A stretch of 53,481 nucleotides of DNA from a virus (lineage: Duplodnaviria > Caudoviricetes), in IMG/VR virus record IMGVR_UViG_3300044707_000344, positions 1 through 53,481 of that record; one strand, written 5' to 3'. The notes below the pieces were generated by a model that saw only the letters and a list, made by a program, of their open reading frames with translations, made no database searches and was not told the origin of the DNA. This document shows, one piece after another, positions 31,874 through 37,665 of the stretch (position 1 is its first letter; each line of letters begins with the position of its first letter). The translations under genes and the position numbers were made by a program.

Positions 31874-32761
31874 ATGAACGAGATGATCACCTGCAACGTG
31901 GCCGACAAGGTTCGCTCGGCCTTCAATTTCAGCATCGATAAGTTCCCGCTGCGGGGACCGGAGAACATGGCCACGCCGTTCTACGGCCTGTTCCGGTCTG
32001 ATACCGGCGCGGCGGTCGGCTACGGATCGGTCAGCGACCGCTACACGCCGCACACGACTGACGACGTGCTGGCGTTGGTCGAAGCGGCCGGCGTGGCGTT
32101 CGACGGCGTGGCCGATGTGAAGTGTTATTTCGACCACGGCCACTACGTCACGGTCCAGCCGACGAAGGAGCAGCGGCTCGCGGTGTACGGCACGAGGGAC
32201 AACGTGTTTCCTCGCATCGTGATCGACGCCGGCTACGGCGGGCAGGCGTTCCGCGCCTCGCTCGGAATGTATCGCGACGCCTGCCGCAACATGATGATCC
32301 TGCGGCAAGCCGAGGGCACGAACGTGGCGATCCGCCATACGTCGAGCCTGCTGCTTCAGATGGACGAACTGATCGCGACGTTCGCTTCGCTGGAAGCGGG
32401 CTGGGGCAACCTCACGGCTGTCGTGCAGCAGATGCAGTCCCGCGAGGTTCGGATGGTCGAGTTTCTCAACGCGATCTACGGCGAGCCGAAGTCTGACGAA
32501 CGCCGCTCGGTCACGATGCACCGGCACCGCACAGAGGCCATCTTCCGCCGCCTGTCGTCGGAGCGGATGGTCACGGGCCGGGGCTCGCTCGGCTCCGACT
32601 TCGTGGTCACAGGCTGGGAAGCGTTCAACGCGGTCCAGGGATACGTCCAGCACGACAGCATCCGCCGCGGTCGGCCGACCGAGATGGAGCGGATCGTGCG
32701 GGCGCTGCACGACGGCAAGGTTGCACAGGCCGAAAGGCTTGCACTGACGATGGCGGTCTAG
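31874..32761 (+). CDS. DUF932-like domain protein
   Basis: RSDTG...VSDRY, RDACRNMM, IRHT, GWEAFNAV. Confidence 0.7.
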   Translation: MNEMITCNVADKVRSAFNFSIDKFPLRGPENMATPFYGLFRSDTGAAVGYGSVSDRYTPHTTDDVLALVEAAGVAFDGVADVKCYFDHGHYVTVQPTKEQRLAVYGTRDNVFPRIVIDAGYGGQAFRASLGMYRDACRNMMILRQAEGTNVAIRHTSSLLLQMDELIATFASLEAGWGNLTAVVQQMQSREVRMVEFLNAIYGEPKSDERRSVTMHRHRTEAIFRRLSSERMVTGRGSLGSDFVVTGWEAFNAVQGYVQHDSIRRGRPTEMERIVRALHDGKVAQAERLALTMAV

Positions 32762-32792
32762 TCCCCCGCCAGACGCCGCGTAAGCGGCAGTC

Positions 32793-32841
32793 GCCGTGGC
32801 GGGTGGGTTCCACCGTTCCCCCGCCCGCCACGGCTCTTTTC
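32793..32841 (+). terminator. Rho-independent terminator
   Basis: 15-bp stem GCCGTGGCGGGTGGG/CCCGCCCGCCACGGC followed by TCTTTT. Confidence 0.65.
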
Positions 32842-32874
32842 AAACAACGAACGGCAACCAAAGAAAGGGACAAC

Positions 32875-33180
32875 GTGGAACACATCAACAAGGGCACTCC
32901 GGTCTACAGCGCGTACATCGGAACGAACCCGGAGCTTCACTGGATCGACGAGGGAGTGATCTCGGAGATCGTCTTCAACGGCCAGCCGCTGGTGAGATGC
33001 GGCGACGCGCTAGTGCCGTATGGCAAGAAGTGGCGACTGACGAAGGCTGATGCTCGCCGCGACATTCACGCCGCGCTCATTCGGCACATCGGGAAGCTGC
33101 AGGCCGAGGCCGACAAGATGGCCGACGAGATCCTCCACGAAGACCTCGCTACGGAGGAGGTGACTCGTGGCGTGGCATGA
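32875..33180 (+). CDS. Hypothetical protein
   Basis: AAAGGGA RBS before GTG. Confidence 0.65.
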   Translation: MEHINKGTPVYSAYIGTNPELHWIDEGVISEIVFNGQPLVRCGDALVPYGKKWRLTKADARRDIHAALIRHIGKLQAEADKMADEILHEDLATEEVTRGVA

Positions 33181-34579
33181 CTCTTTCGACCGGATGAAGC
33201 AGCGTCCGCACGTGTTGGTCGTGTGTCCGCAGGCCGTGGCACCGGCATGGGGTCGAGTTCTTGTCGGGGCATCACGCGGTGAATTCACTGCGTGGCGTCA
33301 CCAGCGAGACGCAGCGGCGTGGGCAGCGGAGCGGCACGCGTCGATGCTCGCGCTTGATATGGGCACGGGCAAGACGCTCACGACGCTGCTCGCTCTCGGA
33401 ATCGACAAGCCGGGCGTCGAAGCTGTGCTGCTCCACGACGGCGAGAACAAGAAGCGTGCAGAGAGACTTCGCAACGCCCTGCTGATGGCGGCGGGCAGAA
33501 CGCTGGTGGTTGTCGTGAACTACGACAGCGTCTGGCGTGGCGAACTTGGAAAGATTATTGAAGCAACGTCGTGGGCAGCGATCGTGCTGGATGAGTCGCA
33601 CAGAATCAAATCGCCGGGAGGAAAAGCCTCGCGGTGGCTGGCAAGGATTGCGGCGAAACACGACCACGCCAAACGGCTCTGCCTCACAGGCACGCCAATG
33701 CCTCACAGCCCGCTCGACTTATACGGGCAGTTTCGGTTCCTCGATCCGAACGTATTCGGCGCAAGCTATACGAGAATGCGGGCTCGCTACGCAGAATGCG
33801 ACCCGCGGTTCCCGTCGAAGGTGCGCACGTGGCGGAACCAAGACGAACTGGCGGCGAAACTCGACGCTCATTCCTGGCGTGTTACGGCAGACGAAGTGCT
33901 CGATCTGCCCGATGCAATCCACGAAACAATCCCGGTCGAACTCAGCCCGAAGGTGTTGCGGTTCTACCGCACGTTCGAGAAAGAGATGACGGCAGAAATT
34001 GATGCCGGCACAGTCACCGCGGCAAATGCGTTGACGAAGCTCCTGCGGATGGCTCAGGCAACCGGCGGCTACGCCCGCATTGACGGCGCGGCTGGCGTGA
34101 CTGCGATCGACGGCATCCCAAGCAAGCGGCTAGCGCTGCAAGATCGGCTGGAAGATTTGTCGGCTACGGAGCCAGTGGTTGTATTCTGCCGGTTCCGCAG
34201 CGACCTCGATGATGTGGCCGCCGCGGCCCGCGAGTTAGGCCGCGAGTACGCTGAGGTGTCGGGCGAGCGGAAAGATCTCGAGCGATGGCAAGCCGGTGAC
34301 GCGGCGATTCTCGGCGTGCAGATGCAGTCGGGCGGCGTCGGGATTGACTGCTCGCGGGCGGCCTACGCCTTCTACTACAGCCTCGGCTACTCGCTAGGCG
34401 ACTACGAGCAAAGTCTGGCCCGTCTACGGCGACCGGGGCAGACGCGGTGCGTGCGGTACTACCACCTTGTGTGCCAGGGCACAGTGGACGAGCAGGTGTA
34501 CGCGGCATTGAGGGAGCGTCGAAATGTTGTCGACGCGGTGCTGCAAAAACTTTCGCCGAGGAAAGGTGCAGTGGCATGA
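33167..34579 (+). CDS. SNF2-like (SF2) helicase with rearranged N-terminal motifs
   Basis: LALDMGTGKT, LDESH, LTGTP, VVVFCRF, SGGVGID, QSLARLRRPGQ. Confidence 0.92.
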   Translation: MAWHDSFDRMKQRPHVLVVCPQAVAPAWGRVLVGASRGEFTAWRHQRDAAAWAAERHASMLALDMGTGKTLTTLLALGIDKPGVEAVLLHDGENKKRAERLRNALLMAAGRTLVVVVNYDSVWRGELGKIIEATSWAAIVLDESHRIKSPGGKASRWLARIAAKHDHAKRLCLTGTPMPHSPLDLYGQFRFLDPNVFGASYTRMRARYAECDPRFPSKVRTWRNQDELAAKLDAHSWRVTADEVLDLPDAIHETIPVELSPKVLRFYRTFEKEMTAEIDAGTVTAANALTKLLRMAQATGGYARIDGAAGVTAIDGIPSKRLALQDRLEDLSATEPVVVFCRFRSDLDDVAAAARELGREYAEVSGERKDLERWQAGDAAILGVQMQSGGVGIDCSRAAYAFYYSLGYSLGDYEQSLARLRRPGQTRCVRYYHLVCQGTVDEQVYAALRERRNVVDAVLQKLSPRKGAVA

Positions 34580-35031
34580 GTATTGAATTGGAGATCGACG
34601 GCCAGCTTGCGGACAGCCAGCAGCTTTCAAAGCTGCTAGAGCGAGTGGCCGAGTTGCAGGCCGAGAAGGAGCGGATCGCTATCGAGGCGAAGAAGGTCAA
34701 CAAGGCACTTGACGAGGCCGAGCAGATGGCAGTCGAGGTGCTGGCGGCGTCGGGCCTCGACGGCGTGCGGGCGGCTGGAAAGTCGTGGTCCACTCGCGAG
34801 TTTTTCAGCGTTAGCGTGCCGAGCGAGAACCGCGAGGCAGTTGTCGAGGCCGCGGAGGAGGCCGGGCTTAGCGACTTGATTGCGGTCAACACGACCACGC
34901 TCAAGTCGTGGCTGGTCGAGAACCGCGGCGACGGCCAGCCAGCCGAGGCGGGTTTGGCCGCCGGCACCCCATTCGAGGGGCTGATTGATGAGTACCGGGA
35001 GGTGCGGCTGTCGCACCGAACGCTGGGTTGA
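34576..35031 (+). CDS. Replication-module coiled-coil protein
   Basis: ATGA-coupled to the helicase; VNTTTLKSW. Confidence 0.7.
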   Translation: MSIELEIDGQLADSQQLSKLLERVAELQAEKERIAIEAKKVNKALDEAEQMAVEVLAASGLDGVRAAGKSWSTREFFSVSVPSENREAVVEAAEEAGLSDLIAVNTTTLKSWLVENRGDGQPAEAGLAAGTPFEGLIDEYREVRLSHRTLG

Positions 35032-35086
35032 TTGTTTGGGTACGTTCTGTTTCTATTTCTTCACTTCACGAAAGGATTGGTGGCTG

Positions 35087-35851
35087 ATGACTCCGACGGG
35101 TGAACTCATTACGGGTGCAGCGCAGAGCAAGTTTCTGGCCCTGCGTCCCGACTCGGACGTGCGTGAGGCTCTGATGGCGAACCTGGGGCCGGGTGAGACG
35201 CTGCTGGCGTCCGACCTGCCCCGCGTCTCAACGCCCGCGGCCGGCGGCAAGGTGTGGTCGTGGACGGACTCGGGGAACAACGAGCAGTCCGCGAAGAGCA
35301 TCGACGGCGTGCTCGTCTACTACGGCGTGCGGGGCACGCTGTGGGGCAGCGAGGAGCCGCAGGGCAAGGCGTCTCCGGTGCTGGTGTCCTACGACCTCAT
35401 GACCGCGGTCAGGGTCAACGAGGACATCGGCGACCTCGATGCCGACGTGCTGGAGTCGTGCCGCACTGGTGACCGCACCTACGATTGGACGAGGCTTCCG
35501 TACAACCAGTACGGCACGAGCAAGTCCGGTCGCGGCAAGCGGTGCAAGGAGTCTCGCCTGCTGGCGATCCTCCGCGGCGACGAGGCGTGGCCGCTGCTGG
35601 TGACGGCGGGGCCGGGCTCGCTGAAGACGGTGACCCCGTTCGTGAAGCGTCTGGCCGTGCCGCACTACCGTGCGATCGTGAGCCTGACGCTCGACAAGGT
35701 TGAAAACGCGGGCGGGCAGCCGTACTCGCAGATCGTCCCGAAGTTCATCGGCTCGATCACGAAGGAAGAGGGCGACATCGTGCGGCGGCTTTACACCGAG
35801 CCGCTGTCGCGTGTCGCCACGCAGATCGACGTGCCGCAGGATGCGGCGTAG
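35087..35851 (+). CDS. Putative ssDNA-binding/recombination protein
   Basis: GKRCKE.RLL, P..GSLK; located between helicase and primase. Confidence 0.55.
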   Translation: MTPTGELITGAAQSKFLALRPDSDVREALMANLGPGETLLASDLPRVSTPAAGGKVWSWTDSGNNEQSAKSIDGVLVYYGVRGTLWGSEEPQGKASPVLVSYDLMTAVRVNEDIGDLDADVLESCRTGDRTYDWTRLPYNQYGTSKSGRGKRCKESRLLAILRGDEAWPLLVTAGPGSLKTVTPFVKRLAVPHYRAIVSLTLDKVENAGGQPYSQIVPKFIGSITKEEGDIVRRLYTEPLSRVATQIDVPQDAA

Positions 35852-35876
35852 TCAGGGAAGGGCTCGTCGGTCATAC

Positions 35877-35919
35877 GCCCCCGCGCCTCGTGGAGACGCG
35901 GCGCGGGGGCTTTCCTTTC
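35877..35919 (+). terminator. Rho-independent terminator
   Basis: GCCCCCGCGCC/GGCGCGGGGGC stem followed by TTTCCTTT. Confidence 0.65.
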
Positions 35920-35943
35920 ACCGCACAAACGGAGGATCTGATC

Positions 35944-37665
35944 ATGAGCGTGGGCACGCTCGCGGCATCGTACTGCCGCCTTGGATGGCATCTAGTGCCG
36001 CTCTACGGAGTGGTCGAGCCGGAAGTCTGCACCTGCATCAAAGGCAACGACTGCGGCACGCCGGGCAAGCACCCCAGCGGCGGAACGGCGTGGCACCTGT
36101 CCGCGACGAACGACGAGGACGAGGTGCTGAGTTGGTACGAGCGCAGTCAACCTGTGAACGTCGGCCTGCTCCTCGGCCCGAAGTCTGGTGTGATCGACGT
36201 GGAACTCGACGGCGACGATGCAAAGTCGGCGTGGAACGACCTCGACCTCGGCGAGATTTGGACGCCAACTTACCAGGCAGGCCGCGGACCACATCGGCTG
36301 TTTCGCTGGCGGGAAGACCTGCCTGCCGTCGCGGTGCGGAAGGTGCTTGGCATCGAAGTTCGGATCGGCAACGGCGGCAAGGCGGCGCAGTCGGTCGTGC
36401 CGCCATCAACGCACCACACCGGCATCCGCTACGAGTGGGTGCCTGGCATGAGTCCGGACGACGTGGAACTCCAGCCGCTTCCAGAGCGGTTGCTGAACCT
36501 GCTCTGGAACGATGACGGCAGCGGGCAAACGCGGGCTATAGCAAGGTCGCCGGCCCGCGAGATGCTGCATCGGCCCGTGCAGTCGGGCGGCAGGAACAAC
36601 GAGCTGCACAGGTTCGCCGTCTCCGAGGCGTTCCGCGCGGGGCCGAACCTCGACCACGAACGGGAGCAGCAAGACCTGCTGCTCAAGATTCGGGCGGTCA
36701 ACGCGATCCAGTGCAAGCCGCCGCTCGACGATGCGGAGTGCGTGGCGATCTACCGCTCGGCCATCGGGTTCGTCCGCAAGAATCGGGCCGCGGGTGTTTC
36801 GGCAGACGCGGCGATCATCGCCGCCGAGATGGCATCGCCGCCTGCGGTCACGGCCCGCCAGCCAGGGCTGACGCCGACCGGGTGGCAACGAGTGTTTACG
36901 GAAGTCGGCTTGTCCTACGCTCCGCTGACACCGGATTCGGACAGCGACCCCGAATGGGGGCCGGGCGAGTGGGGGCTGACCATCGTGCACAGCGACCCCA
37001 TCGAGTACCGCCTGCACGTCCCGCACTGGCGGAATTACACGCCAGACCACACAGGCAACGTGACGCTGACCGTGGATCAGTACCGCTCTGCACCGAAGGT
37101 GGCGGCGCAGGTGCTGGCCGCGACGGGCCGCGTGATGCTCGACGACGACCCGAAGCGGTGGCGTCAGATTTGGGACGGCGGCTACAAGGTCCGCGACAAC
37201 GTCTCGGCTGGCGACCGGTCGACCAAGCGGAACGCCCGTGGAGTCAAGGCGAAACTCCTCGACAACGCGGGGGAGGAGTGGCCAGGAGCGTCGAGCCTGC
37301 GGTACGTGCTCCTGGCTTCGTGGCTCTACGACCGGCTAGCCCAGGCTGCCCAGCCGTCCGATGATGACATTCCCGACCCGACCGGCCGGGCAGCGTGGCG
37401 GGCAGACGGCACGTTGTGGTTCGCGTGGGGAAAAATCTGGGAAGACATCGAGCGGCAGCACCGGGTTGAGACGGGAGAGCGGCTTGCCCTCAAGAGGCGT
37501 CTGCTTGCCCGTATGGGGGCCGCAGAGGATTTCCGGCATGAGGAGCACCGGCACCTCGGCGGTGCCCGCAAATCGTACGTGGTGTGGTCTCGGAGGGAAT
37601 TCGCGGTGCTAGAAGATATGGCCGCGACACTGACGACCGCCGGGCCTGCCGACGGGACTTCCTAG
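35944..37665 (+). CDS. Bifunctional primase-polymerase (Prim-Pol) with PriCT-like domain
   Basis: CTC...CGTPGKHP, NVGLLLG, IDVELD, GRGPH, VVPPSTH, GGRNNEL, CKPPL. Confidence 0.85.
   Translation: MSVGTLAASYCRLGWHLVPLYGVVEPEVCTCIKGNDCGTPGKHPSGGTAWHLSATNDEDEVLSWYERSQPVNVGLLLGPKSGVIDVELDGDDAKSAWNDLDLGEIWTPTYQAGRGPHRLFRWREDLPAVAVRKVLGIEVRIGNGGKAAQSVVPPSTHHTGIRYEWVPGMSPDDVELQPLPERLLNLLWNDDGSGQTRAIARSPAREMLHRPVQSGGRNNELHRFAVSEAFRAGPNLDHEREQQDLLLKIRAVNAIQCKPPLDDAECVAIYRSAIGFVRKNRAAGVSADAAIIAAEMASPPAVTARQPGLTPTGWQRVFTEVGLSYAPLTPDSDSDPEWGPGEWGLTIVHSDPIEYRLHVPHWRNYTPDHTGNVTLTVDQYRSAPKVAAQVLAATGRVMLDDDPKRWRQIWDGGYKVRDNVSAGDRSTKRNARGVKAKLLDNAGEEWPGASSLRYVLLASWLYDRLAQAAQPSDDDIPDPTGRAAWRADGTLWFAWGKIWEDIERQHRVETGERLALKRRLLARMGAAEDFRHEEHRHLGGARKSYVVWSRREFAVLEDMAATLTTAGPADGTS

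Follow-up and report, generated by a model that had tools for sequence, protein, structure and literature searches.

A phage SNF2-family ATPase gene in which a motif Ia-like unit precedes the Q motif and Walker A, with predicted return of the unit to its canonical place in the fold

The window analysed here is the whole 53,481-bp stretch of an IMG/VR virus record, rated 100% complete by CheckV. On its plus strand, positions 33167 to 34579 (stop codon included) hold a gene with a GTG start, whose 470-aa product, P0001, is assigned to the SNF2-family ATPases by both Pfam and Foldseek. In this protein the motifs follow one another in the linear order Ia-Q-I, which departs from the colinear SNF2 order Q-I-Ia-Ib-II. 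Quite probably, we are dealing with a functional phage SNF2 (SF2) DNA-dependent ATPase, in which the beta2-alpha2 unit carrying motif Ia occupies the N-terminus and is predicted to refold into its canonical slot.

The family assignment draws on several lines of evidence. P0001 is matched by the Pfam profiles SNF2-rel_dom (81.9 bits; Pfam cut-off 24.9) and Helicase_C (28.8 bits; Pfam cut-off 23.5), as well as by PHROG 62, annotated as "DNA helicase" (E 4.5e-102). The predicted model displays the Snf2 two-lobe fold, with at least 500 Foldseek matches in the PDB at E <= 0.001, the best of which are CSB, SMARCAD1, Mot1 and ISWI (E 1e-19 to 1e-15). Across 99 aligned homologs, H45 and Q46, G66, G68, K69 and T70, D142, E143, S144 and H145, as well as T174 to P177 (TGTP) and Q415, R419, R422, G424 and Q425, are invariant. 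These columns belong to the catalytic motifs Q, I (GxGKT), II (DExH), III (TGTP) and VI (QxxxRxxRxGQ), all of which are present and conserved in P0001. A megablast search of the helicase locus against the phage collection gave no match.

Read from its N-terminus, with all features on the plus strand, P0001 begins with a leader of 12 residues (MAWHDSFDRMKQ; 33167-33202), in which a helix is predicted with low confidence at residues 3-10 and of which at least 90% of the 99 homologs retain W3 and H4. The relocated beta2-alpha2 unit follows (residues 13-39; 33203-33283), with a strand at 16-19 and a helix at 22-36, and contains the motif Ia block VLVVCPQAVAPAW (residues 16-28), whose exact position is 33212-33250; H15, L17, V18, P21, Q22, A23, V24 and W28 are invariant across the 99 aligned sequences. 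Next come the Q motif W43-R-H45-Q46 (33293-33304; AWRHQ spans residues 42-46), with its invariant H45 and Q46, and motif I or Walker A, DMGTGKT (residues 64-70; 33356-33376, within LALDMGTGKT at 33347-33376). A short loop of 7 residues, GIDKPGV (residues 78-84; 33398-33418), stands at the site that the Ia unit occupies in canonical relatives, and leads to a strand, AVLLH (84-88; 33416-33430), equivalent to strand 68-72 of the canonical relative P0145. Further downstream lie the strand at 112-117 with NYDS (118-121, the end of VVVNYDS at 115-121; 33500-33529) and the motif II strand 138-142 with DESH (142-145; 33578-33601), which, in the co-fold described below, flank the N-terminal strand on either side, the invariant motif III, TGTP (174-177; 33686-33697), and the likewise invariant motif VI region, Q415...R419..R422.G424-Q425 (34409-34441). 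A preliminary description of this DNA had given motif coordinates that proved exact throughout, and its central claim, that motif Ia lies ahead of the Q motif and Walker A, holds (residues 16-28 as against 43-46 and 64-70). It had also stated that no Ia-like segment lies between motif I and NYDS, in agreement with which an Ia-segment HMM gives only negative scores elsewhere in the protein (residues 109-115 and 122-128).

That HMM was built from 109 canonical-order relatives, with 2000 shuffles of P0001 as the control. Its best site in P0001 is residues 16-30, at 14.0 bits, while the top shuffle reaches 6.4 bits. Among the 8 permuted proteins identified in a wider set of homologs (see below), it finds the N-terminal site in 6, is weak on P0123 (3.6 bits) and misses P0122 (best -1.7 bits); in P0123, the N-terminal block is aligned by the Pfam SNF2 profile from profile position 54. 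When run over the full P0001 sequence, Pfam SNF2-rel_dom aligns residues 88-287 with profile positions 82-270 of 290 and, when given residues 43-88 alone, it aligns residues 45-77 with profile positions 1-38. Because these alignments cover only positions 1-38 and 82-270, profile positions 39-81, which hold the motif Ia unit, are left without an in-order counterpart. A Pfam search with residues 1-42 alone returned nothing at E up to 10. The main hhalign alignment with the canonical P0145 pairs residues 41-467 with its residues 2-450 (E 4e-170), leaving a 23-column gap at the Ia unit of P0145, and a second alignment pairs residues 8-39 with its residues 36-67 (E 1.3e-4, at a probability of only 53.7%), thereby covering exactly the stretch that the main alignment skips. 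Compared with canonical phage relatives, P0001 has about 28 extra residues at the N-terminus and about 25 fewer after the Walker A helix. In these relatives the Ia block comes about 19 residues after Walker A, and it is that very segment which is missing from P0001: Thermus phage phiLo, the best phage match, has VLAVCPKAVAPSW after Walker A, identical at 10 of 13 positions to residues 16-28 of P0001, and bajarodcaudo virus 5 has SIIVTTRKGCAVWEDE at the site missing from P0001. Taken together, the hhalign and HMM results show the relocated segment to be homologous to the one absent from the canonical position, and on these alignments the N-terminal block is best read as motif Ia.

The same displacement is apparent in the predicted structures. 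AlphaFold2 (AF2) modelling of P0001 on the 99-sequence alignment (pLDDT 82, pTM 0.67) yields the elements H3-10 (low confidence), E16-19, H22-36, H44-54, E58-63, H69-77, E84-88, H94-107, E112-117 and, further on, E138-142, and that of the canonical P0145 (pLDDT 93.5) yields H5-16, E19-24, H30-37, E43-48, H50-63, E68-72, H77-85, E93-98 and, further on, E120-124. The secondary-structure inventory is therefore equal in the two proteins, with one strand-helix (beta2-alpha2) unit displaced. Since strand 84-88 of P0001 corresponds to strand 68-72 of P0145, it is the next canonical strand and not a substitute for Ia, so that the suspicion that a separate internal strand fills the Ia position is not borne out.

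To see where the N-terminal strand is placed, residues 1-42 and residues 43-300 were co-folded as separate chains with ESMFold2, alongside 3 controls. The co-fold had an ipSAE of 0.83 (0.82, 0.85 and 0.83 in the individual runs), the best of the 3 controls having 0.01; 58 of 80 solved complexes and 2 of 110 mismatched pairs attain this mark, counts that are approximate here because our own alignment was used. The runs share at least 87% of their contacts, the pLDDT of the partner is at least 64, and residues 13-38 form the docking segment. Its tightest contacts join residues 16-19 to 138-141 on one side and to 114-117 on the other, the register rising (parallel) on both. Because of these contacts, the N-terminal strand (16-20) is predicted to lie inside the sheet, parallel to the motif II strand on one flank and to the NYD strand on the other. 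In the ASCE core, beta2 adjoins the Walker B strand, and in SF2 enzymes it carries motif Ia. That the N-terminal strand takes up the motif Ia slot is a prediction at the level of the model, the assignment being made from the split-chain contact list and DSSP strings rather than by superposition on a solved SNF2 structure, and the identity of the canonical slot being drawn from the ASCE strand order of one paper together with the general SF2 topology. A passage of that paper gives the strand order of the ASCE core as 51432 (PMC9960219) and, for Chd1, a passage of another has motif Ia contacting the tracking strand, with motifs II and III intimately associated with Ia (PMC6118821).

In terms of mechanism, the beta2-alpha2 unit, which canonically follows motif I and helix alpha1, has moved to the N-terminus, before the Q motif. 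The RecA1 lobe therefore has its first two blocks swapped, AB becoming BA. The N-terminal strand (16-20) would re-enter the beta2 slot, parallel and between the Walker B (motif II) and NYD strands, so that the chain connectivity changes but the three-dimensional core, and the place at which Ia contacts DNA, would be retained. The model supports, but does not prove, the predicted return of the unit to its canonical slot. The earlier inference of a re-wired RecA1 domain gains support from homology, family-wide spread, purifying selection and the split-chain model alike.

To determine how far this order extends, we classified 151 proteins, consisting of the query and the 150 best 50%-identity cluster representatives out of 46,487 hits. 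In 123 of them, the automated test located the Ia block after Walker A and before DExH; in 6, query included, it located the block before Walker A. Inspection by eye added P0122 and P0123 to the permuted proteins (8/151 in total), the most distant of which are about 42% identical to the query. Another 15 of the 151 carry the block after GK[TS] but fail the DExH pattern used, and 5 are without GK[TS] and look like fragments. Among 120 close homologs, at 66-99% identity, the order is permuted in at least 116 (in 102 by score and in a further 14 by eye), and the remaining 4 (P0004, P0108, P0113 and P0105) are shorter gene calls. The search for the same order in homologs, as proposed in the preliminary description, thus finds it family-wide among close relatives and in 8 of 151 proteins of the broader set; the permuted arrangement is inherited and old, and selection maintains it. 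Two relatives, P0123 (861 aa) and P0156 (916 aa), have an insert of about 370-450 residues after motif III with a match to LAGLIDADG_3, which by this match looks intein-like. The permuted P0123 also has MRTGKT, and not MGTGKT, as its Walker A.

Such an order might conceivably be an artefact, arising either from a misassembled or chimeric 5' end or from a real start at M60 that leaves the upstream block untranslated, and some existing gene calls agree with the latter: the protein recorded for the window (P0004, 411 aa; 33344-34579) begins at M60 and thereby lacks the Q motif as well as motif Ia, two homologs (P0108 and P0113) begin at the equivalent Met, and P0105 begins inside the Ia block. 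We nevertheless regard an artefact as extremely improbable. The region was found in 22 listed runs from 21 lake or freshwater metagenome studies, 4 of them possibly the source, and in 4 lake runs without that flag the contigs covering 32900-33700 differ by substitutions alone, free of indels and joints; one independent contig spans all of 32900-33700 and another 32900-33672. Lack of support for the junctions, which the preliminary description had named as a ground for doubt, is therefore contradicted by independent contigs that bridge the region without indels. Furthermore, a start at M60 would delete the invariant Q motif, the N-terminus is kept open in 116 of the 120 close homologs, and a Shine-Dalgarno-like (ribosome-binding-like) run, GGAGGAGG, lies at 33153-33160 on the plus strand, 6 nt upstream of the GTG. 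Codons 2-42 were also compared in 13 diverged viral loci (75-80% identity), where synonymous differences number 19-24 and non-synonymous ones 11-15 (dN 0.13-0.18, dS saturated), and the remainder of the gene has an omega of 0.13-0.19; a 14th locus (L007), being 99% identical, is uninformative for selection. Judging from this excess of synonymous changes, the N-terminal codons are under purifying selection. Because the motifs are intact and the gene is under such selection, we infer that P0001 is an active DNA-dependent ATPase/translocase.

With the block accepted as translated, two other readings have to be weighed against an Ia unit that docks in its own chain. One holds that motif Ia was lost, that the N-terminal block is an unrelated extension resembling it by chance or convergence, and that no true Ia strand exists. 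The shortness of the block, the absence of any Pfam family in residues 1-42 alone and the probability of only 53.7% for the second hhalign alignment are all in keeping with this, yet that alignment fills exactly the columns skipped by the main one, and neither the HMM score (14.0 bits against 6.4 for the top of 2000 shuffles), nor the 10/13 identity to the phiLo Ia block, nor the element inventory shared with the canonical relative, nor the docking of the block between two core strands would be expected of an unrelated extension, which makes this reading very unlikely. The other accepts the homology but has the unit act in trans, in a 3D domain-swapped dimer, or as a regulatory gate that docks and undocks. 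This fits the confident docking of the unit when supplied as a separate chain, the mere 7 residues or so between helix 22-36 and the Q helix 44-54, and the pLDDT, which at 80-88 in the N-terminal unit falls below the 90-95 of the adjoining core. On the other hand, the AF2 monomer already has a DSSP strand at 16-19, which needs a partner strand in the same chain, and we consider the trans or gated arrangement unlikely. With the same reserve, an Ia strand at a free N-terminus may be exchangeable, though we doubt it, the core becoming complete only upon docking, whether within the same lobe or in the lobe of a partner protomer; if true, this would give a phage motor a built-in assembly or activity switch that is impossible for colinear SF2 enzymes. 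The preferred reading remains that of a unit refolded within its own lobe.

As to the evolutionary origin, the preliminary description had pointed to a DNA echo, gcgtggcatgac/gcgtggcgtcac, underlying MAWHD and AWRH, as a possible trace of duplication followed by reciprocal deletion. The echo is accounted for by chance: the 12-mer, with up to 2 mismatches, has 15 matches in the window against 10.1 +/- 3.4 expected, and 9 of 100 shuffles reach 15. In addition, the profile alignment matches residues 8-15 to the last part of helix alpha1 and to its loop rather than to a Q motif. No duplication intermediate, defined by two Ia-like matches of at least 7 bits, occurs in the 271 proteins examined out of 46,487 homologs. 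Duplication with reciprocal deletion itself thus stays plausible, while the echo adds nothing significant to it and the 271 proteins yield no intermediate. Were about 200 bp at the 5' end to undergo a partial tandem duplication in frame, A-B-A-B would result, after which the first A would be lost through a new start and the second, internal B deleted. Duplication followed by deletion is probably the most plausible and the simplest putative route, but is unproven. The leader would then stand where helix alpha1 of the lost first copy is to be sought, and by the hhalign offset the low-confidence helix 3-10 does sit at the alpha1 position of this putative first copy, which we regard as no more than a positional hint.

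P0122, P0123 and P0134 have a leader in common (...S[FW]..MKQRP...), and this resemblance suggests common descent. Phylogenetic trees were built on the columns matching residues 84-466, the trait's own columns being excluded, with FastTree on 150 rows (P0262, a 325-aa fragment, was dropped) and with IQ-TREE in quick mode on 36 chosen of those 150. In the FastTree phylogeny, 7 of the 8 permuted proteins fall into a 12-row clade (support 98) together with the canonical P0135, P0145, P0247, P0266 and P0271, P0134 is placed elsewhere, and 4 changes of order are needed. The permuted proteins were not recovered as one clade either in FastTree (150 rows) or in IQ-TREE (36 rows, poorly resolved). A single permuted clade was not rejected by the AU test (delta lnL 1.52, p 0.48), so one origin is permitted but not demonstrated. 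The permuted P0134 (487 aa) has a leader nearly identical to that of the window (NSFDRMKQRP and DSFDRMKQRP, respectively), and its body groups with the canonical P0210 and P0132 in both trees. A 5' end acquired by mosaic recombination might account for this, as might simply the poor resolution of the trees.

Compared with known systems, P0001 stands closest to the canonical phage SNF2 helicases (PHROG 62; phiLo_119, the bajarodcaudo virus 5 "chromatin remodeling complex ATPase" and P0145), with 35-48% identity over residues of about 80-470. They share motifs Q, I, II, III and VI, the sequence of the Ia block, the inventory of elements and a similar replication-module context, but are ordered Q-I-Ia-II, whereas in P0001 Ia is N-terminal and the internal site is reduced to a 7-residue loop. 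The eukaryotic and archaeal Snf2 cores (CSB/Rad26, SMARCAD1, Mot1, ISWI/Snf2h, Ino80 and the Sulfolobus Rad54-like 1Z63) have the same two-lobe fold, with a query-normalised TM of 0.55-0.66 for most of their Foldseek matches; in contrast to P0001, with which they share 14-22% identity, they are colinear with the SNF2 profile, and set against them P0001 is without accessory domains. Naturally permuted enzymes of the P-loop or Rossmann type include the circularly permuted GTPases (YjeQ/YlqF type) and permuted DNA methyltransferases. Circularly permuted N4-cytosine methylases are mentioned in PMC10853773. Like P0001, these GTPases and methyltransferases keep their fold in spite of a non-canonical linear order of motifs; in their case, however, it is whole domains or motif blocks that are permuted, and this in other superfamilies, while the permutation in P0001 swaps two adjacent sub-domain blocks within the RecA1 lobe of an SF2 ATPase. 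Within the literature searched (full text; most subscription journals lie outside it), no paper describing SF2/SNF2 motifs in a permuted order came to light.

To our knowledge, SF1 and SF2 helicases are regarded as defined by an invariant Q-I-Ia-Ib-II order, which is also built into profile models, Pfam SNF2-rel_dom among them. Here, a large natural family under selection departs from this order while apparently retaining the fold, which would mean that the RecA-like core tolerates the re-wiring of an interior strand. Protein design, like the study of folding and permutation, thereby gains a test case from nature, and the permuted order of the family explains both the truncated gene calls and the N-termini left unaligned in profile annotation.

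The neighbourhood of the gene (31874-37665) is a replication and recombination module. It comprises a DUF932 gene (31874-32761), an unassigned 125-aa ORF (32803-33180) that overlaps the helicase start by 14 nt, a DUF7307/Pam3 gp33-like gene (34570-35031) with a weak match to Mu Gam, a gene for a phrog_23155 protein (about 35084-35851) and a Prim-Pol primase gene (35890-37665). In this setting P0001 is most likely a putative dsDNA translocase or fork remodeller acting in phage replication and recombination. Planctomycetota were considered as the host and set aside, a single 6.9-kb contig that covers residues 270-470 being too weak a basis; this contig (L006; VGYP01000148.1), from a Planctomycetota MAG bin, is 90% identical to the C-terminal 201 residues (270-470) of P0001 and may be either a mis-binned phage fragment or a hint at the host. 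Finally, short contigs from two runs (X5 and X7) match the window only at 33093-33127, 35 bases inside the upstream 125-aa ORF, and continue on both sides into unlike sequence, the loose ends being identical in the two runs; these 35 bases are a short segment common to some other genome.
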